Shown here: positions 1-24,464 of the stretch, piece by piece
Numbering within the stretch: position 1 is the first letter of the stretch
Layout: the number at the start of each line of letters is the position of its first letter
Assembly (NCBI GenBank): GCA_963674965.2
Contig: CAXXFL010000002.1
Location: 64,001-128,000 of the forward strand
Origin: a bacterium
Lineage (GTDB): Bacteria > RBG-13-61-14 > DATKZS01
Direction: 5' to 3'
DNA length: 64,000 bases
Program-made: the position numbers and the translations under genes
Notes under the pieces: model-generated
What the model was told of the DNA's origin: nothing
The model's database searches: none
The model's input: only the letters and a program-made list of their open reading frames with translations

Positions 1-1275
1 ACCCAGGAAGGTGAATTATATTTCTTTAGACCTTGCGAGGGAACAGGTTGTTCATGGCGGGGAGACTACTGGAAAATTATCGAGCCTCAGGACCCTTACC
101 CTTTTTCCGGCAACACCGTTACCGCGAGGCAAGAATTATATTTTTCAGACAACAACTGGAGGCTTGAGGCCATTTCAAAAAGTAGGGCGCCAGGTTGCCC
201 ATATGAGCATGTCGAGGCGACACTATATCTTCCCGATGGCACCAAAAAGAAATATCAAAGAACGGATGGAATCTATTCTGGAACTGTCGTTGGAAGATTA
301 AAATTGGTTGAGATCGATTATCCTAACGGCTCCGTCGTAACAATAGAGTATCTGGCTTCTGACGCCGTTGACACCTACGGTTTTTATAACGCTCCAGAGC
401 GGGTCACTCTCACTGGCGCCGGCAGCACGACTTATAATGTGGATTTCATTTATGAAAACGTATCGTCCGAGGTCGCCCAGTATGAAAATTCCCCATCTTA
501 TTCTTATCGTCCCGCCGGGAGCCTAAAAAGGCTTGACGTTTCCCAGAACGACGAATATTTATACAGCCGTTATTACTATTATCACGATATTCCAGAGGAA
601 TTTTATTGCTCACCCGTGAAGAACGGCTTCACTTGTGATTTTTTCGGGGCCAGCGACTATCAGCTCGTGGACACTTTTATTCTTGATTCTGGGGCCACCG
701 TCGACATTTGGAACGATCTATCAGACGTTTTAAACAATTACACCGTATCAGATTTTTGGCACTTTGAGCCTTTTTCTTTCCTCGGAACCGGGACCGATGT
801 ATGCGAGAGCGAGGTTGTTTCCGGTGATCCGGGTGAAGTTAGCTGCTCTCCTTTTGACAATAATGGGTTGTGCGAGTTTCTTTGCCCTCCTCCAGAGATA
901 AAGGCCATTACGACTCCCTGGGGCGCGAAGATATTATATGATTATGATGGTATATATTACGACCCGCAAGTCGATTTTGGAGCGACTCCTTCCGGCTGGA
1001 ATGAGATAACCGACGGTATCTGGGAACGCAGTGCAACAATTTACTTCAGGAATATTTTGGAGCAGAGAAGCGAGATCAATAAATTAAACGGCCGCGTCGA
1101 TACCTTTAACGCTATGAAAAGGGTCGGGAGCGGCGATCAGGTCGGGACTTTAAAGACCACGATAGAAATCGACAAGCTGATGGACGGCATGAATCCCCAT
1201 ATATTCCGATGTTTCGCCGATTACATCCCGAACGAGACGGATATTGCTTCTCAATTTCATTCCTTAAAAAAGGAG
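1..1275 (+). pseudogene. Rhs/YD-repeat shell protein, 5' part (starts upstream of window), interrupted by IS110
   Basis: Frame 1 is open from base 1 (TQEGELYFF...LYLPDGTKKKY...RLKLVEIDYPNG). YD-like motifs (ITTPWGAKILYDYD). Joins in frame to 2590 once the IS is removed (...HSLKKE|YYYYDTSS...). Confidence 0.8.
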
Positions 1276-1319
1276 ATGGTATGAATGAAGAGTTTTGAGG
1301 TGGTAAATACTTCAACTAG

Positions 1320-1500
1320 GTTAGGAATGATCTATTGGAGTAGGCGGGTCGTGGGCTGGATCGTTTTCGTGAGGCTTATGACCTCGTAAAGGAGATTAGT
1401 CAGCCCCGCGACTGGAGCGCCACCGTAAGGCTAGACCTTGTATAGGAGTTTGGCGGCCCCTCAAAGCGTGTCTACTCCGACCTTAGATCAAATTTATTTC
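1320..1500 (+). ncRNA. Putative bridge/seek RNA of the IS110 element
   Basis: Outer stem (TGATCTA/TAGATCA, GGAGTAG/CTACTCC) encloses two hairpins. Their internal loops carry AAAGGAG (1388-1394, matches target left+core) and ATAGGAG (1442-1448, matches donor left+core). Confidence 0.65.
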
Positions 1501-1517
1501 TAGGGAGGAGTAAGGAA

Positions 1518-2534
1518 ATGGGAAGGTACATTGGAATCGATCTGCACAGGAATTGTTTCACCTCTTGCGTCCTGGCCGAGAACGGACGGAACTATCTCAA
1601 GGACTGGCGTCTCGAGGATTTGGAGAAGTTTTGCTCGACGCTTCGCGAGTCCGACGAGATCGCGGTTGAGGTCACGGGCAACGTCCGCCTTTTTTACGAC
1701 GCCGTTCGCGGCCTCGTTTCCCGCGTCGTGGTTGTCAACCCTCGCCAGTTCAAGGTCATCAGCGAGTCGGTCAACAAAACGGACGGCAACGACGCCAGAC
1801 GCCTTGCCCTGTTTTTGTCCAAGGGCCTTTTGCCGGAGGTGAGGATGCCGAACAAGGAACACGCTCAGGTTAAAAGCCTCACTCAAAGCCGGGACAAGCT
1901 GGTGAAGCTTCGCACGGCCTTGAAGAACAAGATCAACAACATCTGCTCGGCCCACGGCATCAACCTGAAGAAGGAATATCTTTCCAGCGAGAAGGGCCTT
2001 GAGACGGTGCAGGAGATACCTTTCGACCCCATGGTCAAGACCGAGGTCCGCGTCCTGGTGGAGCAGATTCGGGGCTTGAACGCCGGGGTCAAGGAGCTTG
2101 AGGCCGCCATCAAGGACTCGGGCAATCAGCTTCCCGGTCACAAGAATTTGAAGAGCATAAAGGGTATCGGGGACCTTGGCTCGGCCATACTTTTGTCGGT
2201 GATCGTTGACGTCAAGGACTTCCCCGACGAGGGCAAGCTGGCCTCCTACTTCGGCATCGTCCCCCGGGTTAGCAACTCGAACGAGACCAGCCGCTCGGGC
2301 CGGATCACGAAGCGGGGCAACAAACTCGGCCGCACTACCCTGGTCCAATGCGCCCTCATCGCCAAGCGTTACAGCCCTTATTTGTCGAGCTTCTACGAGC
2401 GTATCAAGGCCAGGCGCGGCGCGGGCAAGGCCATCATCGCACTGGCTCGCAAATTTTTGAAGATCATTTACATCACTTTACAGGAAAACTTGATTTGGGA
2501 GGACTTCCCGAACGGAGTAATAGCGAAAGGCTGA
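1518..2534 (+). CDS. IS110-family DEDD transposase/recombinase
   Basis: GIDLH, VEVTG, KTDGNDA motifs and C-terminal SIKGIG...LASYFGIVP...GRITKRGN. RBS GGAGGAG upstream. Confidence 0.95.
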   Translation: MGRYIGIDLHRNCFTSCVLAENGRNYLKDWRLEDLEKFCSTLRESDEIAVEVTGNVRLFYDAVRGLVSRVVVVNPRQFKVISESVNKTDGNDARRLALFLSKGLLPEVRMPNKEHAQVKSLTQSRDKLVKLRTALKNKINNICSAHGINLKKEYLSSEKGLETVQEIPFDPMVKTEVRVLVEQIRGLNAGVKELEAAIKDSGNQLPGHKNLKSIKGIGDLGSAILLSVIVDVKDFPDEGKLASYFGIVPRVSNSNETSRSGRITKRGNKLGRTTLVQCALIAKRYSPYLSSFYERIKARRGAGKAIIALARKFLKIIYITLQENLIWEDFPNGVIAKG

Positions 2535-2589
2535 GTTTGTAAAATAATTCAGCTAATTTAAAAGGTTGGGTAGACAACCATCATAGGAG

Positions 2590-5388
2590 TATTATTATTA
2601 CGACACCTCCTCCATAAGCGAGAACGGTTCAATCTGGCGTTATCAAATCCTCAAGGCTTTAAAGACGTTCGGGGTTCGAGACGACGGCGGTGTTTTCAAC
2701 TTAGAAGACGTGGAGTATGAATGGATTGGTCGGCCATCGCCTTTTTTACTTGGCATCCGGATGGTTTCACAATATTCCGCCACTTCGGTTCCTTACTACG
2801 TTTATTACAACAGGTACGTTGGCGGTTTAACGCAATCCTTTATTGATCCGACTCCCATGATCCCGGTGCTTTCCGGAGTTGAGATGATTCGCGACGGCAT
2901 CACCTACAACATGGAGGCTAGCGACTTCAACATGTACAACTCTCCCGGCAGGGTCGTGTCCTCCATGGACGGGGGTTATTCGAGGACGAGCAATTACACG
3001 TTCAATCATGAGGCCCAAGTAAGCGGGGACACCTACATGATCGGCGTGACAACTAACACAGACTCCAGCCTGAACGGGGGCACGGGCAACGTCGGAAGTT
3101 TTAGAACGGACATGGCTAATGGCCTCCTCCAGGCCTCGGTGGTTGACATGAGCGCTCTTAGCTTGGAGTACGACTCAGGCGGCAACGTAACCAACTCCAT
3201 GGGCGACGATGGCGTTAAAAACACTTACGAGGGCTATACAATGGGTCGCCCCAAGACGGTCAAACTCTACGACGAAGCTTTACGAGGCGACATGAAATAT
3301 AACGCTTTAGGACAGGCAACGGAAGTGAAAGTACCTAACGCCGGCGGCTCTGATATAATTTATCAATACATTTACGACAATATTGGGCGTCTGAAGTCCA
3401 TTATCCGTCCCGGTTCCTTGTATGACACGGAGATAACCTACCAGGGAGGTACGAGTACCACTGACGGTCCCTCCCAGGATTATTATAATTTATATTACTT
3501 TACTGATAGTAGAAAGAGCGTTACCGGGGACCGCGAGAGTATAGATCATCTGGACGGCTGGGGACGTGTTTGGAAATCGGAAAGGAAAACAAACGACGGC
3601 TATAGTATCACAAGATTTATAAGACGCGACGTTTGCGGGGTTCCCCGGTATTCGTGCTCGCCCCTAACCTCGGATTTTAACGACTTCCAGTGCGTTAACG
3701 TTTCCATTTCCATTAGCGCCCTTGACGCCTTTGGACGTCCTTCCTTTTCCACGGATCAGTCGGGAGAGGACGATGAGTTAGGAAGATACGTATCTTACGA
3801 GTACGAGGGTGGGAGTCAGGGTCTGGATGTGGATATAAACGTTGGATGCGTTTCGGGTTCTACTTTTTGCAAGAATGAACCTTATTCTACCAACTATAAA
3901 GAGGTCTATAAGGGTCCTGGTCCAGGCGAGCTATATATGACGGAGCGAGTGGGGCCTACCGTGAGCGGCGGGCCTACTCCTCGCAAGTTTAAATATAACT
4001 ATGGCTCAAAGGGCGAGCTTCTTTCCATATCCGAGGAGAGCGGGGCGGGCATTGGGGACCGTGAATTCACTTACGACGCCAAGGGAAACGTTATCGGCAC
4101 ATACAGTCCCGAGTCCGGCCAGAGAAGATTCACGCGCGATTCTAGAGGCCGGATAACGTCGATCAGGGCCTCGGACAACTCGGTCGTTAATATGACCTAT
4201 GACCGAGCCGACCGGGTGACGCAAATCCAGGCCGTTGGCGTCAATCAGCCTCTTTACAAGTTTACCTATCACTCGGGATCGGGCAGCCTGACCAAGGAGG
4301 AGGGAGACTGGAACCAGGTTTCCTACGATATCGATTACGATTACAACAACTCGGCTCCTCTTCTTGACGAGGTTTTAATTAATTACACCGTCCCCACTTC
4401 AACGGGCGTTGATTACGCCGACTTTAATATCAAATACGACTATAACGAATACGGCGAGGTAACCTCGGTAGACTACGATGGAGAAATGACCATCAATCTA
4501 ACGCGTGATTATTTGGGCAGGGTGAGGTCCATATCCAAGTCAGGGGCGGACGATATCATGGAGTCGATTACTTATCAGCCGGACGGCTCGCTTAAGCGAA
4601 TGACTTATGGAAACGACGTGGTAACGGACATTTTCCAGTTCTATGGCCTTGGCATTATCTCGGAGATATCCATACGCACGAAGGCGCAGGCACAGGCCAT
4701 CAATCGGGATGATATAACCGAAGATATTATCAGGATAGCCGGCGGCGGCTCCTACGATTATTGGAACGAAAGATATGGATATTACGACGGCTCTTACCAA
4801 TACTTCGACAATTATCTCAATCCACACAAGGCTGAAATCGGTCCCAATTATACCAGCTACCGACTTCAAATCGACGCGCAATACGACAAGGAACAACGTC
4901 TTTCCAAAGCGTCTTACTCCGACTTGCAAGGCGACACGGTATTTTTAGACATAACTTATGGTTTTGATCGTCGAGGCAACAGGACCTCGAAGAATCTGAC
5001 ATGGACCCCAGGCTCATCCGAGACTTATTCATACAACTACGATTCACTAAACCGCATCTCTTCAGTGACCGGCAATACCTTGGCCACCAGTCCAACCATC
5101 GGAGATTACGTTCACGACTCGCGGGGCAACGTTATCCAGACGCCCACGCACAAGTACGGCTTCGATCTTTTCGACCGGCTGGTTGACGCCGACGACGGCA
5201 AGGTCAAAATCTATTACACGGCGGGCGGCAACAAGTTCCTAAAGGTGACCGAGGAGGAGGCGACCGTCTATTTCTATGATCCAGGCGGTCGAATGCTATG
5301 CGAGAAGACCTTCCGACTTAGCGACTTCCGGCAGCTTAGCCGCAAGTTATACGTCTACGCCAACGGCCAGATGGTGGCCCAGTTTTAG
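2590..5388 (+). pseudogene. Rhs/YD-repeat shell protein, 3' part; ends before the Rhs-associated core
   Basis: Many YD repeats (EYDSGGN, YDNIGRL, TYDAKGN, TYDRADR, FDRRGNR, YDSLNRI). Terminates at KLYVYANGQMVAQF* with no GARxYDP or DPxG core. Confidence 0.85.
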
Positions 5389-5411
5389 TCGAAGAAGAAG
5401 AGGAGGATAAA

Positions 5412-6227
5412 ATGAAAAGGTTATCTTGCTGGAACTGGATCACTATTAACAAAGCCACTGGCATCGCATTGGCGGTTCTATTTTCAATGTTCATGGCGGC
5501 CTTCATGGGCTGCGGTAAAGGAATGGATAGGACCGGCTCGGACGGCGACGCCGGCGCGGCAGTTTCAGGAAAACAAGCTTCATCCTCATCGGTGAAAGAA
5601 CGGGCTGTCCCCGCCAATACCGCAACCGAGCGCAAAGAGCCTAGGAAGGGCATACAACGCTCCCCCGTTGGAGAAACCAATCTGCGGGCGAAAATACGCG
5701 GACTCGCCTCTTCCAAAAACAAGGCTGAGGCTAATGAATCCATTGATTCGCTCACCGATATTTTCGAAGGTGGAGATAATAATCATGACCTGGCCACAAG
5801 GACCCTGGCGGCGGCGGCCTTGGCCGAACTAAGCAAGGCCGAGGAAGACCGAGCGGCGGCTGTTGCCTCCCTCGAGCCTCTCCGCAAGGCCCTATTTCGC
5901 GATAAGAGCGCGGTGGTCCGAGCCTCGGCCGCGCGCTCACTGGGGGCGAGCGGCTACATCGAGTTCAAGTCCCCCCTTGAGTTAGCCATGAAGACCGACG
6001 CGTCGCTCCTTGTCCAGACGGCGGCTTCCGAGGCCCTTGAAAAGCTAACGGGCGAGACGTTAGTCTCTCCGGTCGAGAAGGCGCTAGCCGAGTCCACCAT
6101 TCCGACCAGGCGCTCCCTTTCCTCTTCGGTCTCATCGGAGTGTATCCCCAGGGAGTTATTCGAGTCGCTAAACGAGCACCTCTTGATTCTCGATCCCGAG
6201 AACGCCGAGCGATCGATATGCAAGTAG
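5412..6227 (+). CDS. Predicted lipoprotein with HEAT/PBS-lyase-like repeats
   Basis: RBS GAGGAGG. Hydrophobic stretch ending FMGC (lipobox-like). HEAT motifs (DKSAVVRASAARSLG, DASLLVQTAASEALEKL). Confidence 0.75.
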   Translation: MKRLSCWNWITINKATGIALAVLFSMFMAAFMGCGKGMDRTGSDGDAGAAVSGKQASSSSVKERAVPANTATERKEPRKGIQRSPVGETNLRAKIRGLASSKNKAEANESIDSLTDIFEGGDNNHDLATRTLAAAALAELSKAEEDRAAAVASLEPLRKALFRDKSAVVRASAARSLGASGYIEFKSPLELAMKTDASLLVQTAASEALEKLTGETLVSPVEKALAESTIPTRRSLSSSVSSECIPRELFESLNEHLLILDPENAERSICK

Positions 6228-6250
6228 GCAAGGAAACAAGGAGCGAAGCC

Positions 6251-9200
6251 ATGAAGTTAAAGGTAATGAAAGCGGCGGCGATCTTCGTCATATTTTTTCT
6301 AGCGGCGGTAATTGTAGGCTGTGGAGCCAATCAGAACAGCTTTGTCAAGGGACTTGGCCCGGCTTACACGGAGGTAATGTCTCTCGGCAAGAACGTGGAA
6401 ATCCTGGACCCGTCCATGGAGGACAACCAGCATAGACTCGTGGTGTTTTTCGACAGGTGCGTTGACGACGACACGGTGACCTTGTCTGATCTTGAGCTTT
6501 ACGGGCAGACCGTTACAAATTTCGATTCTTACCTCACTCCCAGTCAATCCGTCTTTAACTTCGATTATTGCTTTACAAAGTCATGGGACTCCCTTTCCAG
6601 CGGCGCTTATTTCACCGGTACTATTTGGGCGTCCACGACCGAGTGCGAGTCCGGCTATAGCGACAAGCTCTACGTGGGCCTCGTTGACGATGACACGCTG
6701 TGGCACGGAATGGACGATTATGAAGGAGCGTTCGCGTATAAACTGGTAATTGATAAGATATTCCATGACTCGGAAGAGAATCAATCAAGCGGCGACGTAA
6801 TCAATTATTTCATCGTGCGCGACTTCGCGAATAACGCGAAACATCCCACTTTGAGCCACGTTTATCCGGCGAGCGGCTCGGGGCTTTCCGGCGACTCCCT
6901 TTTATACATGCCCATGCCTCCTCACTCGACGTTTACTCTTGGAAGTTCCGAGCCTGTTCTCAACCTGTCTTATATTCCCTATGAGGTTTTCTGGCACGAC
7001 GACGATCTCCATGCCCCGTTTGACGGCCCTTCAATCGGCAATCCCAGCGTAATAGTCAGAAATAACAGAAAAATCGAGATCGGCGCTTCCTCGGGAATGC
7101 CTCTCGATATCGAGTACCATTTTTGGATTTACTCTCGTCCTCAGAACTATTACGACGTTACCTATGGTCCAGGCTCGGGAGCGACCATTTCAATGGACGG
7201 AGAGTTATCGGACGTCCTTCTTGTTTCTCCTCCCCCAATCAACGCGTTTGGCAAGGCCATCGTTCTTCCCTCGGACTCGACCTTCCAAATACTTGAGGAA
7301 GACGTCGTCGAGCGGGACGTTTTCCACGCCGGCTTTTACAGTGATCATCCCACATACGTTAAGGTCTATGAAGTAAAAGGGCGCGTCGGACCGGTCGTTA
7401 TCGACGAACCAGTTACATATTCCTATCATAAAGCGGCGTACTCGGAGAGCTACTTGACCGTGAGGGCCACGCCGGACGTGGACGAGGTCCGCATAACCAT
7501 GGACCACTGGACCGACTTGATCGGCTCCGAGATGGGCGTGGAAATAACCGACGAGCTTAAGCCTCTTTCCAGTCTTTCCATGCCCTTGTTTTCGTCAACG
7601 GTCCTCGCTCCCGCCATGTCGAGGAATGGCCAATACATGTTCTATTGGGCGCAGGACGGGACCACCGACAATGTCTTTCAGGTCTACCGGACCGACCTGA
7701 CGGTTGACGGATATTCCACGGACGCGCTGACCTCGTTTACCGTGGGCCGCGACGACGCTCAGGCGCTCGCCAGCCATAGTATTTCACCCAACAACGCGGG
7801 TGATCAGGCCGTGTTCTGGTCTCGCCAGGACCTTGAGGACGGTGAAACGTCCACTGATGGAGAATTGTATTTTTGGGACGAGAGCGAGGGCCTGTTTCAG
7901 GTCACTACCAGCGATCTTTTCGGGGACACCAGGGGCGAGCCAAATTATGACGCCGTTCTTTCCTATGAAAATATTTTCTTCTTTTGGACGGAAAACTCTT
8001 CAGCCGGCGACACGCTCGATCATTATGAACTCCTCAGATGTACTTACAGTGACGTCGGAGGGCCATACCCCATTGGCTGTGTAAATATCGTCCAGGGCAC
8101 TACTTTGCATCAGCAAGGAATTAATCCACGCTTGTCCTCGACTACCAACGGAGAATACGTGGCGTTCGTTTCCGCCGAGGACTGGGACGCGTCGGTCGGC
8201 AACTCGGACTACAACTATGAAATTTTCTACTATGGGGAATACGGAGTGGGCGTTCACCAGGTCACTGATTCCGGGTCCACCGTGACCAACGATTATCCAG
8301 TTATCGCCGACGATTCATTACAGTCGATTTACTTCAGTTCCAACGGGAATTACGGCGGAATAGACGGATTTTCCAATGATGGAGACTCTGTCTCCACCGA
8401 GCTTTTCGTTTATAGGAGGCTCAGCGGCGACACCGCCGTCTATAACGAGATTGAACAGATAACCAACGCCTCTCCCGGCGTTACGGTTATCCCCGCCGGT
8501 GTATCCTTGCCTGACGGTAACGGCAATATCGACGTTCTGGTCCTTTCCAATCATAATTTTTCGGGAGACACGGTCACGTCCGGATATAACTACTTCCTCC
8601 TCCAACCCACGAGATACGCCGACGACAGGACCTATAACGCGTGGGGCTACGCGATCACGACCGAACCCGTTATCGCCTCTGCCGGCGACGCTCCGCCTCT
8701 CGTCTCCATGGACGAGGAAAACGAATGGATACTCTTTTCCAGCGAGGAGCAATTGCTTCCAGGCGACACGAATTCGGACCTTGACGTCTATCTATTTCAT
8801 TACAAGGGCCTGGAGAAGAGTTTCACCATCTCTTGGGAGGACTTGATCGACGAGTTCAATTCCCAGAACTCTACTAATTATCGGACAGAGGTCCTGTTGC
8901 CTCGTAAAAGGCATCGGATTACCGTGCATTCATCCACCGCCGGCAGCCCCGGCGTGGACGCAATAGATTTCATCTTCACCGCCGACGACGACTCGGACTC
9001 CGACGGACTTAGCGACGCTTGGGAGATCGAATACGGATACGACCCTTACATCGCGGACAGCGATAGCAACTCCATCACGGACGACCTCGAGGACCCGGAC
9101 GGGGACGGAGTTATCAACTCCAGCGAGGAGGACAACTACACGAATCCCCAGCTGGCGGATTCAGATGGCGATGGACTGGACGATGACGTGGAAATCGGCT

Positions 9201-12200
9201 ACTGCACAAGCCCTATCGACGACGACTCGGATGATGACGGCTTAATAGACGGTCGGACCATGGGCGAGGACCAGGATAATGACGGGGAAGTTGACGCGGG
9301 CGAGACCAACCCATGCTATTACGATACGGACGGAGACGGCCTGCTTGACGGAGTGGAGATAGGCTTCGGTTCGAACCCTCTACTAACGGACACGGATGGC
9401 GATTCGTTATCGGACTACGTCGAGATCATGACGGCCAACACCGACCCCACGCTTGTTGACACTGATGGCGATTCATTGGGCGACGCGGCTGAATATGACT
9501 ATTGCACATCTCCGAGCGATCCCGACTCCGATGGAGACGGCCTATGCGATGGAAACACCTCCGTTTATGACGGTCCCACTTTATTGTGCTCCAACGGCGA
9601 GGACGCCGACCTCGATTTCGAGGTTGACGCGGGAGAAACCAACCCCTGCCGGGCAGACACTGACGGCGACGGAATGAATGACGCTTATGAGAGAGAATAC
9701 TCTCTTGATCCCCTGGACCCCTTCGATGCTTTGACTATATTGTCCAGCGCCACGATAGCCGATCCGGATGGCGACGGAGTGGACAATCTATACGAGGCGC
9801 AAAACGGCACTAATCCTTACGTTGCCGACAGCGACGAAGATGGCGTGTCCGACCTGGAAGAACTTGCCTTGGGCACCGATCCTGGAGACGCGACTTCCAA
9901 TTCCGACGGAGATTCTCTTATAGACAGCGTTGAAGTGACGCTGGGGACATCCCCCAACTCAGATGACACGGACGCCGACGGACTGAGCGATTATCAGGAA
10001 ACCACGGCCCTCTACGGCTTGACGATTGGAATGGGATGCACCATCGTGCCCACGAATCCCGACAGCGACGGCGACGGCATTCCCGATGGACTCGAGGATA
10101 TCGACCTGGACGGCGTCCTTGACGGAAATACGGAGACTAATCCCTGTATAGCCGACACTGACGGCGACGGCATGGACGACGGTTGGGAGGTCTTCTGGGG
10201 CCTGAATCCCCATGTCCAGGACGGGGACACGGACTGGGACTCCGACGGCCTCACCAACCTTCAGGAGTTCCTGCTCTACAAGGGGGCCTCATGCGACGCT
10301 TCCGCCGGGTGCCCGGGAGACACGATAACCGTCTATCTCAACCCGCTTATCGCGGACGTGGACGGCGACACCATGGAAGACGGTGAAGAGATACTTATGA
10401 CCGGCTCGACCGTCACCGCCTACGTCTGCAATCCCATCAAGCGCGACACGGACGGCGATAATGTCCCCGACTATTTCGAGGCCGTGATTAGCCTGTGCCT
10501 CGATCCCATGGACCCCGACACGGACGACGACGGCATTCCCGACGGGGTCGAGGATAAAAACCAGGACGGAATCAGGCAGAATATCGAGACCAACCCGTGC
10601 CTGGCCGACACCGACGGCGACGGGCTGGACGACTACGAGGAACTGCTCTTCGGGTCAAACCCGAGAAACGCCGACACCGACGGCGATGACTTAACCGACG
10701 ATCTCGAGTACTTCTATATGACCGATCCCAACGGCTACACCGACAGGAACGACAACGGCATATACGACGAGTTGGAATTGGTGGAATATGGCATACCTCC
10801 CATATACGTGTTCGATGACATGGACGGCGACGGGCTGGTTAACGGCGACTCCACCGGCGAGGACAAGGACAACGATTACGTGGTGGACTCGGGCGAGACC
10901 GACCCCTACGACATGGACACCGACGGCGACGGGCTGCCCGACGGGTGGGAAATCGAGCATAACCTGGACCCGCTCGAGGCCAACACCTGCTCCTTTTGCG
11001 CGGACAACGACGAGTTGACCGACCGCTCCGAGTACCTCCACCATACCCATCCCGGACTCGACGACACCGACTCCGACGGCATGGACGACGACTGGGAAAT
11101 CCTCTACGGCCTCGATCCCCTGACGGACGACTCGGCCGCCGACCTGGACGGGGACACCCTCACCAACCTCCAGGAATACTCGCTGCTCACCAACCCCAGG
11201 AGCGCGGACTCCGATATCGACGGACTAAGCGATTACCTGGAAACCCAGGCGCTATACGGCCATACCGTCGGAATGGGCTGCGCCACGTCGCCCACTAATC
11301 AGGACTCGGACGGCGACGGCGTGCCCGACGGCCTCGAGGACTTCGACCAGGACGGGGCCCTGGACGGCGACACCGAGACCAGCCCCTGCCTGGCCGACAC
11401 CGACGGCGACGGCTTGCCCGACGGATGGGAGCTTATCTGGAACTCTTACCCGCTGACCGATGACGCGACCTCGGACTACGATTCCGACGGGCTTGACAAT
11501 CTCGGCGAGTACCTGGCCGGGACCAACCCCTACCACAAGGACACGGACCACGACGGCATGGACGACAAGTGGGAGGTCGACGCCGGAGACACCCTCGACC
11601 CGCTCACCAACGACGCCGAGGCCGACCCCGACCACGACGGAGTGACCAACATCGAGGAATGCTGCGCCATGTTCCTCGAGCCCTACCACAAGTGCGGCAA
11701 TAGCTGCGACGACGACGCCCTCGATCCCCTCTCGAGCGACTCCGACGGCGACTCCCTCGGCGACTACTGGGAACTCAAGTACCTCCATCCCACGGTGGAC
11801 GATGACCTGACCGCCGACCCCGACTCGGACTCCATCTCCAATATCTGGGAGTTCAGGTTCGGCACGAACCCGGGCTCAACCGACACCGACGGCGACGGCC
11901 TTACCGACCTCCAGGAAATCTCCTTTGACGGCGATTTATCCTTCGACGGGAGCACCGCTTACCACCCCTACGTCAACGTGTGCATCGGCGACGCCGACGA
12001 GTGCGATCTCAACCCCACCCTGGCCGACACCGACCACGACGGACTGTCCGACTACCAGGAACTGTACGGAAACACCCCCACCAGCCCCGTCAACTTCGAC
12101 ACCGACGGAGGAGGAGACCCCGACGGGATCGAGTTGAATATCGGCCACGACCCCACCAACTCCGGCGACGATTACTACGACGCCGCCGGGCTGTCCTTCC

Positions 12201-15200
12201 CGCCGGCTACGGTTAGTGAAACGGTAACGAGAACGGTGGACGGGGCGTTTCTAGCGGATATTGTTGCTTATAATAATAAAGCTTATATACACTACGCATA
12301 TGAAAACGGCGTTACTTTAAGCGGAAATACGCTATATCTTAAATCGCTTCTCATTACTGGCGGATCACTTTCTTTTTCTTATGAAACTCCTTCGCCAGCA
12401 AATTCATGGCGTTTGGCCCCTGAGGATCATTTAAGCGTTGGTATATATGATGGGGATGGAGACTTTACGCATATGATTGCCTTTCCCCGCGTCTATAGCG
12501 GAACGACGCAAAGAGAACTCAGAGTATGTAAGTGGTATTACTCTAATGTGTTTGAAAGATGTTGGGCCTATAGCGATCTATTCTCTCCGTCTATCGAGGG
12601 ATGGTATCCTCTGGATAATGCGGTGGGCAATTTGATTACTTTAGTTGGCCAAAAGGTTGATCCTGAAGATCCCACGAAAATGTCGGTCGTGTACAAGGAC
12701 GGAACGCATACTTCAGATTTTGAAACATATCCTGATTGGTTTTATTGGTATGATTTTCATACTATCATCGATGATCTCGATATTGATGATATATCTACGA
12801 TTGATTTGAAATATCCAAGCCACACCGGTTCGCCCGTTTATGACTGGCTGGCCTATTTTTCTAATGGTTCAAAAAAATATATATACGCCCGATATTCCGA
12901 TGACTTGGGAAATTTTGACCTGGGCACATATAAAGCATATAACCACCAGGAGGGGACTTTCTTCACCGGCGGCCTCCAGGCCGGGGATACCGTTAAATAC
13001 GACGTGTATCGTGGTTTTACCGGATATGATATCGGTTTCTTCGCGGACAATATCTCCCACTTCCCGGACCATATAAATCAGACTGAAAAGCCCGTGGCTT
13101 TCGCCGCCGAAACCATTGGCGAGACGCGTCACGTGGTTTGGAAATCCGCGGTCGAAACCCCGGTGGGATCGGGCCAGACCAAGTCGGTCATACTCTATTC
13201 CAACGACGAGGTGTGGGCGGATTATTACAAAGACTCGCTGGACGACTCTCCTGAATGGAGACCGCCGGTCTTAATATCAAATCCCGACAATGACGCCGTC
13301 CTGGCAAGAATCAAGGCCAGCCCCAATAAAGAATACCTGCACGTGATCTGGGTGGAAAAGGACCCGTCGGATACTTATCACGTGTACTACTCGAAACTGG
13401 ACGTGGGGGAGTATTACGGATCGACGCTGTTTGACGACGATGATTCTGATAATCTTCTTAAAATCGAAGAATACTACGCGGGATCGTCGGACTCCGATGA
13501 GGACACCGATGATGACGGCATGTGGGACGTCTCCGAGGCGCTTTTCGGCCTGGACCCAACCGACCCGTCAGATGGAGACACCGGGGCCGGATGCCATGAC
13601 CTCGACCAGGACGGGCTGTGCAATTATGACGAATATTTTACGTATTTAACCGATGGTACAAGTAAAGATACCGACCTCGACGGAATGCCCGACGAGTGGG
13701 AAGTTCTTAATAATTTAGTCCCCGACGATCCTCAGGACGCGTATGATGACGAAGACCAGGACCATTTAACAAATATCGATGAGTACCGCTATGGTACTAA
13801 TCCATTGTATTGGGATACCGACGCGGATACCGTACCCGATTACTATGAAATACTCGATGGTAGCGACCCTCTATTAGCGGACTCACTAACCGCAGATTAC
13901 GACGGGGATGGATTAGACTATGAAGGAGAATTATTTTTAGGGGGAAACCCGTATAAACCCGACACCGACGAGGATTATTTAACCGATTTTGAAGAGGATG
14001 ATATATGGTATACATATAGAATTGAAGTCTATTTCTCTGACAGTGACTCCGACGGCCTGACCGATAGTCTTGAGTATTTCGCCCTCGCCTCAGCACCCGA
14101 CGATTTCGACAGCGACAATGACAATATGGACGACGGATGGGAACTCGAACACGGCTTCGATCCCATATCGGCCGCTAATGGCGGGACGGCCGACGCGGAT
14201 GGCGATGGAATAATAAACGTTGACGAGTGCGGCCCGGCGCAGATCGAAGGTCCGGAAGGTCTCGAGGGGCAACCACTTTGCAGGTCCGAAATCAACCCCG
14301 TCTCCATTGATTCCGACTTTGACGGCTTCACGGACGGGTGGGAGGTGGAGTACGCGGATAGCCTTGGGTTCGATCCGGTGGTGGTGGAGTGCGATACGGC
14401 GGTGGCGGATTATGACGGGGACGGGATGGCGGCCATTATCGAGGCGAGGCTGGGGACCAACCCGCTGTTGGCCGACTCGGACGGGGACGGGATCGACGAT
14501 TATTGGGAGGTCATCGCCGGGCTGGACCCGCTGGTGGACGACGCGGCCGATGACCCCGACGGGGACGGGAGGACCAATCTCGAGGAGTACCAGAACTCGG
14601 GCTACTTCTACACCAATCCACTGAGTCCCGATACCGACGGCGACGGGCTGTGCGACGGCGTGACCTCCGTCATGAGCGGCGAGACCGTGATATGCGGTCC
14701 AGGGGAGGGAGACTCGGCGACGCCCGAGCTGGACGCGGCGCGGCTACGGCTCCTGGCCGAGAGCGCCATCGGCGAGTTGACCCTCGGCGACGGCGACACC
14801 TGGTCCGACGAGCTCGAGGAGGGCGACACTCTCAAGCTGTCCGTGGCGAAGGCGCTGGACGCGGGGACGTACACGGTGCGCTTCGATAATGGGTCGGGCT
14901 CGGTTTACGCCATCGAGGCGTACGTGTCCGAGGGCGCGACATATATATTTGTGGACACGGGAGACCTCGGGGACGACGCCTCGGGAAATTTCGACATTGA
15001 CGTGGTGGACGACTCGGGCTCGAGCCTCCTCGACTCGGGCGCCGCCTCGGTCAATATCTCCCAGCGGCTCTACCTCCATTACGGGCTCCACTCCCCGGTG
15101 GTCGCCACCAACTCCGACGGCGAGACCGTCTGGCGCCGCGCCTATCTCCCCTTCGGCGCCGACTTCTCCGGCTCGCCCTCCCACCCCCTCACCATCGCCA

Positions 15201-16060
15201 ACTCCTCCATCACCCACGGCTTCGTCGGCCGCCGCTCCGACAACGACGTCGGCCTCTACCAACTCGGCGCCCGCTGGTACGACCCGGATTTGGGGAGGTT
15301 CGTCAGCGTCGATCCGGTTGCCGGGGGCATCAACCAGTACGCCTACGCTTATAACAACCCGTTCGTGTACCAAGACGCGTCAGGAATGGAAGGAGAAGTC
15401 GCGGAGGCCGCCTTAGGTTATAGTGAATGTTTAGGCGCGTATTCGCATGCTTTGTTTCTGGTCCCTGCGGACGCCGTTAATGAAGCTTCAGGCGGCAGAT
15501 TGCGTTCCACTGAAAATGCACATCTGGCGTATTATACTTATTACATGCCAGAGCAAGGCGACCCCACGAGGGCTTGCTATCAGCTTGGTTATGGGGTTGG
15601 CGTTTCATCCGCGTTGGTGGGCGCCGCTGAATTGCTCATTGAACTTTATGCGGCTGGTGACTCTAGCCAGGATATAGCTCCGCCTTCAGAGCCAGTGGAC
15701 CCGAATTACGAGCCGCCGTCGCCTGAGCCTGCCCCTGAATCATCTCCAGAAACAAAGGAGTTGCCAGAAGATATACAGAGAAGACATGATAAACTAAACG
15801 AAAAAGACAGAAGTGGAATGGACTTCACAAAAGCTGGCAAAGATAACGTTAAAGATATAAATAGGCATAATAATGATGGAACGATGAAGTGTGAAAATTG
15901 CGGCCAGGAGGTTGTTGACGCAGAACAGCACAAATCCGGAGTTACACCGCCTGGTAATGAAGCTCATGTTGACCATAAAACTCGAAAGAGAGAAAATGGT
16001 CGTGGCAATCCTGACAATGGGCAGGTGTTATGCCGAGATTGTAATATGGAGAAGCATTAA
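6251..16060 (+). CDS. Giant (~3269 aa) predicted lipoprotein toxin: TolB-like propeller, DxDxDG calcium-binding repeats, Rhs-associated core, C-terminal HNH nuclease
   Basis: AAGGAG RBS before ATG 6251. Signal MKLKVMKAAAIFVIFFLAAVIVGC. Propeller-like segment ~7590-8810. Dozens of DTDGDG repeats. Core GFVGRR...[13 protein letters not shown]...[11 protein letters not shown]. Tip CENC...HVDH...DNGQVLCRDCNMEK. Confidence 0.9.
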   Translation: MKLKVMKAAAIFVIFFLAAVIVGCGANQNSFVKGLGPAYTEVMSLGKNVEILDPSMEDNQHRLVVFFDRCVDDDTVTLSDLELYGQTVTNFDSYLTPSQSVFNFDYCFTKSWDSLSSGAYFTGTIWASTTECESGYSDKLYVGLVDDDTLWHGMDDYEGAFAYKLVIDKIFHDSEENQSSGDVINYFIVRDFANNAKHPTLSHVYPASGSGLSGDSLLYMPMPPHSTFTLGSSEPVLNLSYIPYEVFWHDDDLHAPFDGPSIGNPSVIVRNNRKIEIGASSGMPLDIEYHFWIYSRPQNYYDVTYGPGSGATISMDGELSDVLLVSPPPINAFGKAIVLPSDSTFQILEEDVVERDVFHAGFYSDHPTYVKVYEVKGRVGPVVIDEPVTYSYHKAAYSESYLTVRATPDVDEVRITMDHWTDLIGSEMGVEITDELKPLSSLSMPLFSSTVLAPAMSRNGQYMFYWAQDGTTDNVFQVYRTDLTVDGYSTDALTSFTVGRDDAQALASHSISPNNAGDQAVFWSRQDLEDGETSTDGELYFWDESEGLFQVTTSDLFGDTRGEPNYDAVLSYENIFFFWTENSSAGDTLDHYELLRCTYSDVGGPYPIGCVNIVQGTTLHQQGINPRLSSTTNGEYVAFVSAEDWDASVGNSDYNYEIFYYGEYGVGVHQVTDSGSTVTNDYPVIADDSLQSIYFSSNGNYGGIDGFSNDGDSVSTELFVYRRLSGDTAVYNEIEQITNASPGVTVIPAGVSLPDGNGNIDVLVLSNHNFSGDTVTSGYNYFLLQPTRYADDRTYNAWGYAITTEPVIASAGDAPPLVSMDEENEWILFSSEEQLLPGDTNSDLDVYLFHYKGLEKSFTISWEDLIDEFNSQNSTNYRTEVLLPRKRHRITVHSSTAGSPGVDAIDFIFTADDDSDSDGLSDAWEIEYGYDPYIADSDSNSITDDLEDPDGDGVINSSEEDNYTNPQLADSDGDGLDDDVEIGYCTSPIDDDSDDDGLIDGRTMGEDQDNDGEVDAGETNPCYYDTDGDGLLDGVEIGFGSNPLLTDTDGDSLSDYVEIMTANTDPTLVDTDGDSLGDAAEYDYCTSPSDPDSDGDGLCDGNTSVYDGPTLLCSNGEDADLDFEVDAGETNPCRADTDGDGMNDAYEREYSLDPLDPFDALTILSSATIADPDGDGVDNLYEAQNGTNPYVADSDEDGVSDLEELALGTDPGDATSNSDGDSLIDSVEVTLGTSPNSDDTDADGLSDYQETTALYGLTIGMGCTIVPTNPDSDGDGIPDGLEDIDLDGVLDGNTETNPCIADTDGDGMDDGWEVFWGLNPHVQDGDTDWDSDGLTNLQEFLLYKGASCDASAGCPGDTITVYLNPLIADVDGDTMEDGEEILMTGSTVTAYVCNPIKRDTDGDNVPDYFEAVISLCLDPMDPDTDDDGIPDGVEDKNQDGIRQNIETNPCLADTDGDGLDDYEELLFGSNPRNADTDGDDLTDDLEYFYMTDPNGYTDRNDNGIYDELELVEYGIPPIYVFDDMDGDGLVNGDSTGEDKDNDYVVDSGETDPYDMDTDGDGLPDGWEIEHNLDPLEANTCSFCADNDELTDRSEYLHHTHPGLDDTDSDGMDDDWEILYGLDPLTDDSAADLDGDTLTNLQEYSLLTNPRSADSDIDGLSDYLETQALYGHTVGMGCATSPTNQDSDGDGVPDGLEDFDQDGALDGDTETSPCLADTDGDGLPDGWELIWNSYPLTDDATSDYDSDGLDNLGEYLAGTNPYHKDTDHDGMDDKWEVDAGDTLDPLTNDAEADPDHDGVTNIEECCAMFLEPYHKCGNSCDDDALDPLSSDSDGDSLGDYWELKYLHPTVDDDLTADPDSDSISNIWEFRFGTNPGSTDTDGDGLTDLQEISFDGDLSFDGSTAYHPYVNVCIGDADECDLNPTLADTDHDGLSDYQELYGNTPTSPVNFDTDGGGDPDGIELNIGHDPTNSGDDYYDAAGLSFPPATVSETVTRTVDGAFLADIVAYNNKAYIHYAYENGVTLSGNTLYLKSLLITGGSLSFSYETPSPANSWRLAPEDHLSVGIYDGDGDFTHMIAFPRVYSGTTQRELRVCKWYYSNVFERCWAYSDLFSPSIEGWYPLDNAVGNLITLVGQKVDPEDPTKMSVVYKDGTHTSDFETYPDWFYWYDFHTIIDDLDIDDISTIDLKYPSHTGSPVYDWLAYFSNGSKKYIYARYSDDLGNFDLGTYKAYNHQEGTFFTGGLQAGDTVKYDVYRGFTGYDIGFFADNISHFPDHINQTEKPVAFAAETIGETRHVVWKSAVETPVGSGQTKSVILYSNDEVWADYYKDSLDDSPEWRPPVLISNPDNDAVLARIKASPNKEYLHVIWVEKDPSDTYHVYYSKLDVGEYYGSTLFDDDDSDNLLKIEEYYAGSSDSDEDTDDDGMWDVSEALFGLDPTDPSDGDTGAGCHDLDQDGLCNYDEYFTYLTDGTSKDTDLDGMPDEWEVLNNLVPDDPQDAYDDEDQDHLTNIDEYRYGTNPLYWDTDADTVPDYYEILDGSDPLLADSLTADYDGDGLDYEGELFLGGNPYKPDTDEDYLTDFEEDDIWYTYRIEVYFSDSDSDGLTDSLEYFALASAPDDFDSDNDNMDDGWELEHGFDPISAANGGTADADGDGIINVDECGPAQIEGPEGLEGQPLCRSEINPVSIDSDFDGFTDGWEVEYADSLGFDPVVVECDTAVADYDGDGMAAIIEARLGTNPLLADSDGDGIDDYWEVIAGLDPLVDDAADDPDGDGRTNLEEYQNSGYFYTNPLSPDTDGDGLCDGVTSVMSGETVICGPGEGDSATPELDAARLRLLAESAIGELTLGDGDTWSDELEEGDTLKLSVAKALDAGTYTVRFDNGSGSVYAIEAYVSEGATYIFVDTGDLGDDASGNFDIDVVDDSGSSLLDSGAASVNISQRLYLHYGLHSPVVATNSDGETVWRRAYLPFGADFSGSPSHPLTIANSSITHGFVGRRSDNDVGLYQLGARWYDPDLGRFVSVDPVAGGINQYAYAYNNPFVYQDASGMEGEVAEAALGYSECLGAYSHALFLVPADAVNEASGGRLRSTENAHLAYYTYYMPEQGDPTRACYQLGYGVGVSSALVGAAELLIELYAAGDSSQDIAPPSEPVDPNYEPPSPEPAPESSPETKELPEDIQRRHDKLNEKDRSGMDFTKAGKDNVKDINRHNNDGTMKCENCGQEVVDAEQHKSGVTPPGNEAHVDHKTRKRENGRGNPDNGQVLCRDCNMEKH
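8985..14720 (+). repeat. Coding acidic DxDxDG (thrombospondin type 3-like) repeat region, interrupted by a non-repeat domain at ~12200-13430
   Basis: Recurrent (N/D)P..xD(T/S)DGDG(L/M)xDxxE units. One long internal duplication (~9965-10260 vs ~11210-11510, ALYG.T.GMGC...). Confidence 0.9.
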
Positions 16061-16062
16061 TA

Positions 16063-16512
16063 ATGAAAAGAAAAGAAAAGAAAATATTGTTAGTTTATAA
16101 AGACTTTGATGACGTTTTTCAAATTGAAAGCGTTTGGGCTGAGAAAATGGATGAATATTATAGAATTGTCAATATTCCATTTTTTGCTAAAAACGTCGCC
16201 TATGGTGACATCGTTGCAGTGGAAAACGACGGGGGAAGTCTATACTTTGATAGCCTAATAAAACCTTCAGGCCACAGCACAATTCAAATGATAATTAATG
16301 ATCCTAATGAATTGAAAGGCATTGGAAATACATTAGTTAGTATGGGATGTGACTGGGAAGAAAGTCATATCAAAGGATACATTTCGATAGACATTCCTAA
16401 AAATGTTGATTATACACAAATAAGAAAATATTTAGAAGAAGGATTGTCGCAAAATAAATGGGACTACAGGGAAGCATGTTTAAGTGATGAACATCGAGAG
16501 AGTACGAAATAG
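16063..16512 (+). CDS. Cognate immunity protein, DUF4265-like
   Basis: Directly follows the toxin stop. ESVWA...NIPFFAKNVAYGDIV...SGHSTI motif. AT-rich. Confidence 0.8.
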   Translation: MKRKEKKILLVYKDFDDVFQIESVWAEKMDEYYRIVNIPFFAKNVAYGDIVAVENDGGSLYFDSLIKPSGHSTIQMIINDPNELKGIGNTLVSMGCDWEESHIKGYISIDIPKNVDYTQIRKYLEEGLSQNKWDYREACLSDEHRESTK

Positions 16513-16665: not shown

Positions 16666-17232
16666 ATGATATATCATAATACAGAATTGATTAAAGAGCA
16701 TTACGAAACCAACTGGAATAATGCGGCAGCAATAAAAAAATGGAATAAAGGGCCAATTCATGAATTGCCTCAATTTTTTAGCGTCCTTGAGTTTAGGCCA
16801 ACCATAAAAAGGGATATGTGGACATATGCAACATGTGGAATGTCAACACTTCAAGATCGGGAAAAGATCGAATTACATATACACTCACCAGAAAGAAATG
16901 AAGGCCTCGTAGAGCTATTAACCGTAGTAGTACATTTTCACGCAACTGATAGTAGTCTTGGTCTATGGCATACCGTTAATTTTGGAAGAGGATGGTTGCC
17001 TGATTCCAATTGTGAATATGGCCTTATTTCATTGCCTTATCTTGACGGTCCAGGCTTTGAAATATTAAAGAATAACAATGATGCCGTTTCTTTTTATTGG
17101 TTAATTCCAATTACAAAAGATGAAGTGGACTATAAAATAAAAAATGGAATAGAATGTCTTGAAGATGCTTTAGAGAAAGCAAACGTTAAATATCTTGATA
17201 AATACAGGGCCAGTGTTATCGGCTGTGAATAG
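16666..17232 (+). CDS. Suppressor-of-fused (SUFU) family immunity-type protein
   Basis: WTYATCGMS...IELHI...FYWLIPITKDE...GIECLED motifs. Confidence 0.85.
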   Translation: MIYHNTELIKEHYETNWNNAAAIKKWNKGPIHELPQFFSVLEFRPTIKRDMWTYATCGMSTLQDREKIELHIHSPERNEGLVELLTVVVHFHATDSSLGLWHTVNFGRGWLPDSNCEYGLISLPYLDGPGFEILKNNNDAVSFYWLIPITKDEVDYKIKNGIECLEDALEKANVKYLDKYRASVIGCE

Positions 17233-17259: not shown

Positions 17260-17318
17260 TTAGTTGTCAATATAGATGTAACTCCGCTCTTTGAAAACTT
17301 GTCATTATTACTTCCGTC
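17260..17318 (+). repeat. Spacer family B with boxA-like motif (17286-17297)
   Basis: GTTGTCAATATAGATGTAACTCCGCTCTTTGAAAACTTG. Homology to the main gene (14309) starts 33 bp after the motif start. Confidence 0.8.
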
Positions 17319-19139: not shown

Positions 19140-19207
19140 TTTGCCAAGCTCGTAAAATGGTCTACAGTTAAGGGAATGAAAATACTATTTACAAGAATAA
19201 TTGGAGT

Positions 19208-19705
19208 ATGAAGGTGCCAGATTTTCAAAAATATTTTATGGAGTCAGGTGGCAAACCAATCGTGTATAATGGCAAAGAAATTCGGATGATGGATGAAATA
19301 CCTGTTCTTAACAGAGATGCCTTTGCTATTACTATTGAAAAATGTAATAGCGAGTGGAAACAAGGCATTTCCTTAGTAGTAAATGGCATTTTTCAAATAA
19401 ATAAGCAGAGGATTAAAAGGGGCATCCTTTTATGGCAAGACACTGCCCCAAGAACTTCTCAGTTTAAGCTGTCCTTAAATAAACCAGGTAAATTAATCAT
19501 AAAGAATGTTTGGGACACTGGTAATGGCGTCATCGAGTCATGGCATCATGGCGCAGGGATTATCGTTGAGGAGATAAAAAACGGAAAACGTTATCACTGC
19601 AATGATGGACATCCCGATGACAATTTCGACGATATAGTATTTATTATCACTAAAATCACTGGTAATACCAGCGAGCAGGTCGGCGCGTTTGATTTTTTGG
19701 GGTGA
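19208..19705 (+). CDS. Putative immunity protein for cassette 1
   Basis: AT-rich ORF after the toxin, GGAG RBS. Family not recognised. Confidence 0.7.
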   Translation: MKVPDFQKYFMESGGKPIVYNGKEIRMMDEIPVLNRDAFAITIEKCNSEWKQGISLVVNGIFQINKQRIKRGILLWQDTAPRTSQFKLSLNKPGKLIIKNVWDTGNGVIESWHHGAGIIVEEIKNGKRYHCNDGHPDDNFDDIVFIITKITGNTSEQVGAFDFLG

Positions 19706-19711
19706 CCCGGG

Positions 19712-21428: not shown

Positions 21429-21436
21429 GCACCGTT

Positions 21437-22102: not shown

Positions 22103-22127
22103 GCCTTAGATTAAAAGCTCGCGATCA

Positions 22128-24457: not shown

Positions 24458-24464
24458 ATTCTGC

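Follow-up and report, generated by a model that had tools for sequence, protein, structure and literature searches.

A putative two-chain Rhs-type toxin operon: a YD shell without core and a giant lipoprotein that carries core and toxin

Can the cage of an Rhs toxin be encoded apart from the core and the toxin that belong to it? Apart from the Tc toxins, an Rhs cage is regarded as one polypeptide folding round its own C-terminal toxin. The question is raised by a 64,000-nucleotide stretch of a bacterial genome (assembly GCA_963674965.2, contig CAXXFL010000002.1, positions 64,001 to 128,000; hereafter the window), in which a YD-repeat shell gene stops at the core boundary. The core does not follow the shell in the same polypeptide but lies two genes downstream, at residues 3002-3083 of a giant lipoprotein. 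The system thus appears to resemble an Rhs toxin in its action, although it lacks the single polypeptide typical of this family. A preliminary description of the region had read it as a two-chain Rhs that assembles in trans, by a delivery route that it did not recognise. Comparison of the sequences indicates that the split is genuine, conserved and under selection, and we consider it probable that the locus is a two-chain Rhs-type polymorphic toxin operon made up of shell, HEAT lipoprotein, giant lipoprotein and immunity gene.

The shell gene occupies the left end of the window:

1..1269, plus strand: 5' part of the YD/Rhs shell gene, codons ~156-578, recognised by homology to the intact paralogue shells P0038 and P0039
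1270..2589 (about), plus strand: IS110-family insertion sequence (IS) with transposase open reading frame (ORF) 1518-2534, cutting the shell gene (DEDD_Tnp_IS110 and Transposase_20)
2587..5388, plus strand: 3' part of the shell gene, 933 codons plus TAG, ending in KLYVYANGQMVAQF, without Rhs core (RHS_repeat, TIGR01643, AlphaFold2 (AF2), Foldseek and VIA)

Frame 1 is open at 1..1284 and again from 2587/2710 to 5388, and both stretches belong to one interrupted YD/Rhs shell gene. It starts 464 bp to the left of the window and totals ~1,511 codons; the 423 + 933 codons visible here fit the earlier count of at least 1357. The N-terminus, MKLKYASVKVILMAVLAVVVIPS, is a Sec-type signal peptide without lipobox, called by eye as were all signal peptides and lipoboxes in this work. 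The 3' part matches Pfam RHS_repeat (E 2.4e-10) and TIGR01643. Translation terminates with SRKLYVYANGQMVAQF, i.e. at YANGQMVAQF, and a profile search returned no match to the Rhs core model TIGR03696 on the shell, in line with the earlier view that it stops at the core boundary without a core. Read-through from the shell stop into the giant gene is ruled out because the HEAT gene lies between the two, in another frame.

The genes that follow are laid out as below:

5412..6227, plus strand: HEAT-repeat lipoprotein with lipobox FMG/C and ribosome-binding site (RBS) GAGGAGG, kept in all three loci of the genome described below
6251..6322, plus strand: signal peptide of the giant lipoprotein, MKLKVMKAAAIFVIFFLAAVIVG/C, behind RBS AGGAG, by eye
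6323..8950, plus strand: N-terminal globular region of the giant, ~875 amino acids (aa), no family match, weak Big_5/PD40 lead
8963..12130, plus strand: TSP3-type DxDxDG block I of the giant, ~30 motifs (TSP3 models)
12158..13450, plus strand: second globular region of the giant, ~430 aa, weak BNR_4 lead
13478..14650, plus strand: TSP3-type block II of the giant, ~9 motifs, where the homology of the long orphan cassettes begins
14678..15055, plus strand: small pre-core domain of the giant, common to all 14 giant-type orphans and the foreign proteins P0199-P0201
15065..15388, plus strand: YD hairpin and Rhs core (TIGR03696), 108 aa, the piece missing from the shell
15389..16060, plus strand: polymorphic toxin region with an HNH nuclease domain from ~15890, then stop
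16063..16512, plus strand: DUF4265 protein without signal peptide, starting 2 nt past the giant stop

Spacers between shell and HEAT gene and between HEAT gene and giant gene measure 23 nt each, and every cistron has its own RBS. The giant forms a GTG-initiated ORF at 6140..16060; its likely start is the ATG at 6251 behind AGGAG, giving 3,269 aa with the lipobox IVG/C. It is matched by TSP3_bac, CglD and MtsD models, and the core covers positions 1-76 of the 76 in TIGR03696 with 64.8 bits (cut-off 32.5), whereas no RHS_repeat match was reported on the giant in the Pfam scan. An HNH match (PF01844) at aa 3251-3306, scoring 26.8 bits against a cut-off of 21.4, predicts a nuclease at the C-terminus. 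These findings agree with the preliminary description of the giant as a separate gene with its own RBS, a lipoprotein-type signal, DxDxDG repeats and no YD shell. The propeller placed on it at the same time is tentative at best, its basis being the weak Big_5/PD40 lead for the N-terminus from the ESM Atlas language model (score 0.82; the lead for the second globular region scored 0.90). Among long proteins, the N-terminal 921 aa matched only their own paralogue. Export signals are present on shell, HEAT protein and giant, and absent from the DUF4265 protein, which is likely the cognate immunity protein.

A giant that carries the whole TIGR03696 core together with the hairpin might also be self-sufficient. 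Its core would then be only a releasing autoprotease without a cage, and the core-less shell a separate surface protein, such as an empty cage, an adhesin or a receptor, encoded in the same operon. We judge this unlikely, albeit the strongest competitor of the two-chain reading, and the evidence on it is given along the way.

The split recurs within the genome. All three shell homologues end in YANGQMVAQF and are followed by a HEAT lipoprotein and then a core-bearing giant of 3,260-3,356 open codons, the junctions being the same in the three operons, which lie on two contigs. Outside the window locus the shells are intact, with listed lengths of 1,505 aa and 1,568 aa. At the DNA level, the loci resemble one another from ~500 bp before the shell start (~window -501) to the core (~15,380), and therefore the unit is shell-HEAT-giant. 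Nei-Gojobori ratios of nonsynonymous to synonymous substitution rates (dN/dS) are 0.13-0.19 for the shells at a dS of 0.84-3.2, denoting purifying selection, 0.28 for the HEAT genes (loci A vs C) and 0.20-0.33 for the giants. That the pair stays together in a tight operon at all three loci, with purifying selection acting on it, argues against a shell unrelated to a self-sufficient giant.

Sequence exchange has apparently taken place among the operons. In the window locus and the one on contig C6 (loci A and B), the HEAT gene and the first ~960 codons of the giant gene are near-identical (proportion of synonymous differences 0.015; 100% over aa 40-960; window 5412-8950), which points to gene conversion; divergence of the shells is 19-24%. 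For window 9491-12261, identity to locus C reaches 94.8%, as compared to ~72% in the surroundings. The mosaic among the three operons looks like gene conversion.

Could the arrangement nevertheless be what rearrangement or faulty assembly has made of a conventional Rhs gene? IS elements and recombinases abound in the region, and the shell in the window is itself cut by an IS. Yet the junctions recur at three loci on two contigs, the shell dN/dS is that of a gene under constraint (0.13-0.19), foreign shells stop at the same residue, and contigs of the sequencing runs provide depth in 30 of 30 bins across window 1-7000, so that decay or artefact has next to no plausibility. Both weak points named in the preliminary description, a one-off break and an assembly chimera at the junction, are thereby answered. 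The depth, which includes the interval 5300-6300 singled out there for a coverage check, comes from Logan contigs of two runs (X1, X2) of one sample and amounts to ~14 over unique shell sequence, ~178 over the IS and ~33 over the HEAT gene and giant start, matching the copy-number expectation, with none of the listed Logan contigs spanning all of window 1-7000. One contig junction joins 1224 to 2971, but on a contig that is 90-95% alike; it is most likely an IS-free paralogue and is uninformative on an IS-free allele.

The interruption itself is well defined. Both transposase domains, DEDD_Tnp_IS110 (E 2.5e-15) and Transposase_20 (E 1.6e-21), place the element in the IS110 family, and the genome contains 12 matches to it, of which 10, the window copy included, are near-full-length at 100% identity. 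Its ends are uncertain by a few bases because AGGAG stands on both flanks. The window reads FHSLKK, IS, EYYYYDTSS, and the two intact paralogues run KKEYYYYDT across the site, which shows that the IS cut clean and in frame. Thus, the shell copy in the window is inactivated by the IS and the two paralogous loci are intact. Since shells A and B agree in all but 2 of their last 40 residues, a paralogous shell may stand in for the broken one. Two IS110-family copies also stand head to tail on contig C7 (C7:6724-9358), and a contig of run X3 joins the IS end (2584) to the IS start (1271), which fits a tandem pair or a circular transposition intermediate.

Does the shell adopt the fold of an Rhs cage? 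AF2 modelling of its last 892 residues from a 30-row alignment gave an all-beta structure with a predicted local distance difference test (pLDDT) of 78.6 and a predicted template modelling score of 0.75. Foldseek matched this model to the Salmonella bongori Rhs core (8qjd_B, E 6.5e-28) as well as to Tse5, Tse15, RhsA, teneurins and TcdB2-TccC3. Upon VIA realignment, 624 residues aligned with Tse15 (Z 17.4, root mean square deviation 3.2) and 637 with S. bongori Rhs (Z 16.2, 3.3). By this model, the shell is a YD beta-cocoon. Its last residue, 892, pairs with residue 1311 of S. bongori Rhs, residue 1243 of Tse15 and residue 567 of the 668-residue YenC2. According to the preprint describing it, the S. 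bongori construct extends to residue 1420 (bioRxiv 10.1101/2024.02.26.582050), and hence ~109 plug residues are absent from the shell. The hairpin and core of the giant (aa 2976-3083) comprise 108. Thus, the shell misses exactly the piece that the giant carries, and in solved Rhs proteins the C-terminal region plugs the shell and does not stand alone (bioRxiv 10.1101/2024.02.26.582050); both points speak against a self-sufficient giant.

The same alignments bear on a Tc-like ABC toxin, in which the shell would be a BC-type cocoon and the giant an A-type translocator. The shell model does align with TcC chains and with TcdB2-TccC3, and two-chain cocoons are the rule in Tc toxins. However, Tc chains (VIA Z 12.6 for YenC2, 13.0 for TccC2 and 10.8-12.3 for TcdB2-TccC3) are outscored by the Rhs chains of type VI secretion systems (T6SS) and by teneurin chains, including the teneurin-like protein 9ifo_A (Z 15.9). 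The intact paralogue shells P0038 and P0039 matched neither SpvB nor any other Tc family at E <= 1. For TcA-type families the search covered the giant, without a match at E <= 0.01. Moreover, core and toxin sit on the giant itself, unlike in any A subunit, and the cytoplasmic immunity gene and the orphan arrays point to interbacterial use. All this makes a Tc-like toxin very improbable.

A co-fold of both chains, as proposed in the preliminary description, produced the beta-complementation looked for there. Shell aa 250-892 (30-row alignment) were combined with giant aa 2970-3306 (14-row alignment), and the runs returned interface (ipSAE) scores of 0.80, 0.84 and 0.84, as compared to 0.00 in each of three controls. 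The mark applied is reached by 58 of 80 solved complexes and by 2 of 110 mismatched pairs, a calibration that is roughly valid here, own alignments having been used. Confident contacts run from shell residues 887-892, the last strand, to residues 8-9 of the second chain (LY of RLYLHY in the strand RLYLHYGL), from shell 633-637, 653-655 and 685-687 to the hairpin, and from shell 700-850 to the core. The interface comprises residues 5-107 of the second chain, the toxin part was not placed, the pLDDT of this partner is 57-61, and the runs share at least 48% of contacts. The co-fold shows likeness, not binding; still, 0.84 against a best control of 0.00 weighs against a giant that has no use for the shell.

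Do relatives in other organisms show how shell and core belong together? Among 1.84 billion representatives, all scanned with HMMER, the 892-aa shell part found 2,364 matches at E <= 1e-3; seven of them reached E <= 1e-30, one being the own paralogue. Three metagenomic proteins from NCBI/ENA with 30-34% identity, P0041, P0042 and P0043, stop flush with the last residue of the shell (YANGRLVAQY, WVNGRIVAQF and YANGQVVAQF, respectively), and the contigs of P0042 and P0043 measure 36,105 bp and 39,528 bp. P0044 is a fragment, named at its source a partial RHS protein of a Planctomycetota metagenome-assembled genome. P0045 and P0046 are single chains that extend 231 and 297 residues further into a core (GFV(G/S)R to NNPF.Y.DANG) and toxin, and P0202 is a third single-chain member of the same shell family.

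From the side of the giant, a word-indexed search with hairpin and core, covering proteins shorter than 1,818 aa, gave 18 matches at E <= 1e-10, nine of them from the own genome. P0200 (ENA, 763 aa, cut at the contig end) has the same build as the giant C-terminus, namely TSP3 repeats, small domain, a hairpin of the form YINIHNGLHSP...VWRRAYEPFG, core and toxin. P0199 and P0201 are orphan-type cassettes with small domain and hairpin. These three come without a shell, as a self-sufficient giant would have it, though on short contigs (2.8-11.4 kb). Over the core half (57 aa), the giant is 66-79% identical to foreign giant-type proteins and 70-72% to the cores fused to the shell family (P0045, P0046, P0202), as compared to 40-56% for 31 other foreign Rhs-type proteins and 30-44% for the 13 conventional cores of its own genome. 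Shell family and core subtype therefore travel together, fused elsewhere and as separate genes here. That the giant bears just this subtype is again at odds with a giant acting without the shell.

Further screens for a second split locus were made in metagenomes and relatives. A metagenome-contig locus search with four shells returned one weak locus, L100, which was rejected as a split system, being a conventional Rhs with its own core. A scan of genome contigs with the core alignment gave 53 loci, none with a TSP3-rich upstream part by a crude motif count, and tblastn with shell, HEAT protein and N-terminus, middle and pre-core domain of the giant found nothing at E <= 1e-5. With the giant pre-core region as query, only TSP3 repeats or cores were matched in relatives, and no giant orthologue.

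Which of the two genes do new toxins enter? The answer lies in the genes downstream of the operon:

16666..17232, plus strand: SUFU-family protein
17295..37606, plus strand: array of nine orphan cassettes, each with giant-type pre-core, hairpin, core and a divergent toxin
17355-19139, 19812-21428, 22200-23936, 24660-25964 and 26572-28311, plus strand: orphan cassette ORFs 1-5
29030-30313, 30973-32229, 33353-34597 and 35234-36982, plus strand: orphan cassette ORFs 6-9

The genome holds 32 TIGR03696 matches, and the open frame around each was compared with the C-termini of giant and shell. Fourteen of these frames are short orphans that are 74-93% identical to the pre-core region of the giant, their homology beginning at aa 2754, 2811 or 2920 of its open frame; the window contains nine of them (17.3-37 kb), and the other five follow downstream of the third locus. 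The shell C-terminus is matched by none of the 14. Six other core frames have weak YD similarity upstream and represent conventional Rhs loci elsewhere in the genome. Toxin diversification thus runs through the giant gene, which marks the core on the giant as the working state. Recombination of the orphans with the giant alone would equally suit a self-sufficient giant, as would the intact giant that the window locus keeps despite its broken shell.

An alignment of 14 cores (giant C-terminus, nine orphans, two paralogues and two foreign proteins) is near-invariant up to NNPFxYxDxxG and unrelated beyond, marking a sharp boundary between core and toxin. Two aspartates, the putative catalytic pair of an autoprotease, stand 21 residues apart in SVDP (12 of 14 sequences, E in the other two) and QDASG (14 of 14). 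A comparable spacing of 22 residues is given by the cleavage-mutant positions D1369N and D1391N in the title of the Tse15 entry 8uxt of the Protein Data Bank. Small genes 3' of the cassettes belong to the SUFU, Imm11, DUF4304 and Tdi1_C families; SUFU-family proteins commonly occur as immunity proteins of polymorphic toxins. Matches of the orphan toxins are weak (Col-Pyo DNase/LHH, PT-TG).

Several minor observations concern cassettes and conventional loci. The orphans at 22200-23936 and 26572-28311 read SVEP in place of SVDP and have almost the same toxin, and therefore form a duplicated cassette. More fragments of the giant pre-core region, 63-96% identical and in frames of 78-361 aa, are found away from the loci or at array ends (C1:910801-912275, C6:879347-879943, C6:733350-733946, C1:1464719-1465027) and are likely decayed cassettes. 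The conventional Rhs loci (C2:9068-17687, C4:369615-381799, C1:684900-690288, C6:475786-480544, C6:847073-858349) have YD repeats before their cores, one frame of 2,907 aa and short orphan cassettes of their own.

Several observations weigh against a two-chain toxin. The shell in the window is IS-disrupted, and two of the 14 aligned cores carry E for the first putative catalytic D. AF2 modelling of the N-terminal 700 aa of the shell failed (pLDDT 39.8, unusable), so a closed cage is not demonstrated by the models. The co-fold may have passed because the predictor knows the solved structures of single-chain Rhs proteins and of TcB-TcC. The synteny of shell and giant is seen in one genome only. 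The search for shell, HEAT and giant together elsewhere, which the preliminary description had recommended, turned up no shell in 60 relatives (E <= 1e-8), in the 12 further genomes of the phylum (E <= 1e-40) or in a sample of 401 Planctomycetota genomes with two candidates scored for each, nor a giant orthologue. Finally, the fused relatives have no YLHYGLHSP-type hairpin, which all giant-type forms have, and the shell strand LYVYANGQMVAQF aligns with the first strand of the hairpin, so that the boundary strand is present on both chains. Owing to the last two points the split is not a plain cut; the extra hairpin may permit docking in trans.

Bearing these points in mind, we picture the two-chain system as follows. 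Sec would export the shell as a YD beta-cocoon lacking its C-terminal plug. The C-terminus of the giant would comprise one YD hairpin, the Rhs core, serving as plug and aspartyl autoprotease, and the HNH toxin, and after export it would go into the open end of the shell. There, the hairpin would extend the last shell strand, the core would shut the cage around the toxin and cut after QDASGM, and the toxin would stay caged at the tip of a lipid-anchored TSP3 stalk. TSP3 repeats bind Ca2+. The caged toxin would be used by contact against neighbouring bacteria, with the DUF4265 protein shielding the producer, and new toxins would enter by recombination of the giant pre-core and core with downstream orphan cassettes, not via the shell. 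The HEAT lipoprotein would perhaps be an assembly, holding or loading factor. What we observed is the layout of the genes with its conservation and selection, the fold of the shell and the homology of the cassettes; from established Rhs and Tc biology we infer trans-assembly, cleavage, surface display, contact route and HEAT function. A bolder version is conceivable, but we hold it with considerable reserve: the Rhs cage would be a separately exported, reusable container loaded in trans, one cage would serve more than a dozen toxins, delivery by contact would be independent of T6SS, type V secretion and Tc, the hairpin would be a docking element evolved for trans-assembly, and the HEAT protein would do the loading.

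BamA homologues in its genome mark the organism as a diderm, and lipoprotein transfer between the outer membranes of touching kin offers another, SitA-like delivery route, with the cage as a safe container. It would fit the lipoboxes on giant and HEAT protein, and the matches of the TSP3 blocks to CglD and MtsD, models of myxobacterial surface lipoproteins; moreover, polymorphic lipoprotein toxins delivered by outer membrane exchange exist (PMC5562445). However, the CglD match (NF033765), with 314.3 bits and a cut-off of 400, is made up of 10 stretches across the TSP3 repeats, so that it is driven by the repeats and falls short of family membership, and the phylum, which is small (13 genomes in the collection used), is not known to perform outer membrane exchange. 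We therefore rate this route as improbable. For the T6SS, the earlier statement that no marker is visible holds for the window and for all three loci, but not for the genome, which contains a TssC sheath gene on contig C7 and a sole PAAR at C6:931879, ~35 kb from the second locus.

How does the proposed two-chain toxin compare with known systems? With canonical Rhs proteins (S. bongori Rhs, Tse15, RhsA, RhsP and the Sec-exported WapA) it shares the YD cocoon fold (Foldseek E 6.5e-28, VIA Z 13-17), a core with a hypervariable toxin and an immunity gene after it, and arrays of orphan core-toxin cassettes. It differs in that shell and core/toxin are on separate polypeptides with another gene between them, core and toxin form the C-terminus of a 3.3-kaa TSP3 lipoprotein, and the orphans are homologous to this lipoprotein and not to YD repeats. 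In contrast to Rhs proteins of the T6SS, neither PAAR nor VgrG is present at the locus or on the scanned proteins, and there are Sec and lipoprotein signals instead.

Like the proposed toxin, TcB-TcC builds one YD cocoon from two polypeptides, with the toxin-bearing chain supplying the core. However, Tc cocoons are split mid-shell, the last ~510 shell residues aligning to TcC residues 4-567 by VIA, whereas here the whole shell is one chain and hairpin, core and toxin are the other. Tc toxins have SpvB and a TcA partner; SpvB was not found on the shells here, and immunity gene and orphans are present. Teneurin-like proteins (TLPs), described in 2026, are YD-shell toxins with adhesion domains, polymorphic C-termini and immunity genes, those of Gram-negative bacteria being predicted signal peptidase II lipoproteins, and they have no known delivery machine (PMC13018210). 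They resemble the present shell in fold (9ifo_A, Z 15.9). In TLPs, TIP, TTR, FN-plug and NHL elements precede the YD shell. A TLP is a single chain of shell and toxin, whereas here lipid anchor and adhesion-type repeats are on the toxin chain and the shell is a separate Sec protein. TLPs are thus known lipoprotein-anchored YD-shell toxins (PMC13018210), and the delivery idea is not without precedent. Hence, of the two-chain, trans-assembling Rhs proposed at the outset, the genuine, conserved and selected split and the pairing in the co-fold stand; the proposal goes too far in view of TcB-TcC and the lipoprotein YD proteins as precedents, the IS-cut shell of the locus itself and the boundary strand present on both chains.

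In CdiA and SitA systems, a long protein or lipoprotein attached to the cell surface ends in an exchangeable nuclease, and a cognate immunity gene and orphan modules go with it. The giant resembles them as a putative surface lipoprotein with swappable C-terminal nuclease, immunity gene and orphans, but here no TpsB transporter, FHA repeats or SitA-type N-terminus are found, and an Rhs cage would be involved. In the literature searched, with subscription journals and supplements outside its scope, we found no system in which one gene encodes the complete shell and a lipoprotein without YD repeats supplies plug, protease and toxin; in PMC3482391, 'thrombospondin', 'tsp' and 'rhs core' have no occurrences within the 300,000 characters covered.

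If the two-chain reading is true, closure and loading of an Rhs cage can take place in trans, the gene that diversifies need not be that of the cage, and YD cages can couple to a lipid-anchored stalk instead of a T6SS spike. This bears on how Sec-exported YD proteins such as WapA and TLPs present and release caged toxins. The two-gene split would also lend itself to experiments with two plasmids, a simple way to study cage loading, plug docking and autoproteolysis.

Beyond the operon, two identical copies of another repeat, at C2:43454-45027 and C2:59528-61101, flank ~14 kb with a recombinase and two-component genes, a short way upstream of the shell gene. The orphan array is followed by a serine recombinase, a type I restriction system and genes for chemotaxis proteins and sensors. 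The recombinase (window 38791-40104) lies at the array end and matches only positions 73-145 of the 145 in the Resolvase profile, so that its N-terminus may be truncated or its start wrongly placed. The restriction-modification system (window 41850-50625) comprises the N-terminal part of HsdM, HsdS and HsdR, with RhuM, DUF4145 and Macro genes between the subunits. At window 55272-58316, one protein of 1,014 aa combines a CheB methylesterase, a CheR methyltransferase and a PAS domain.

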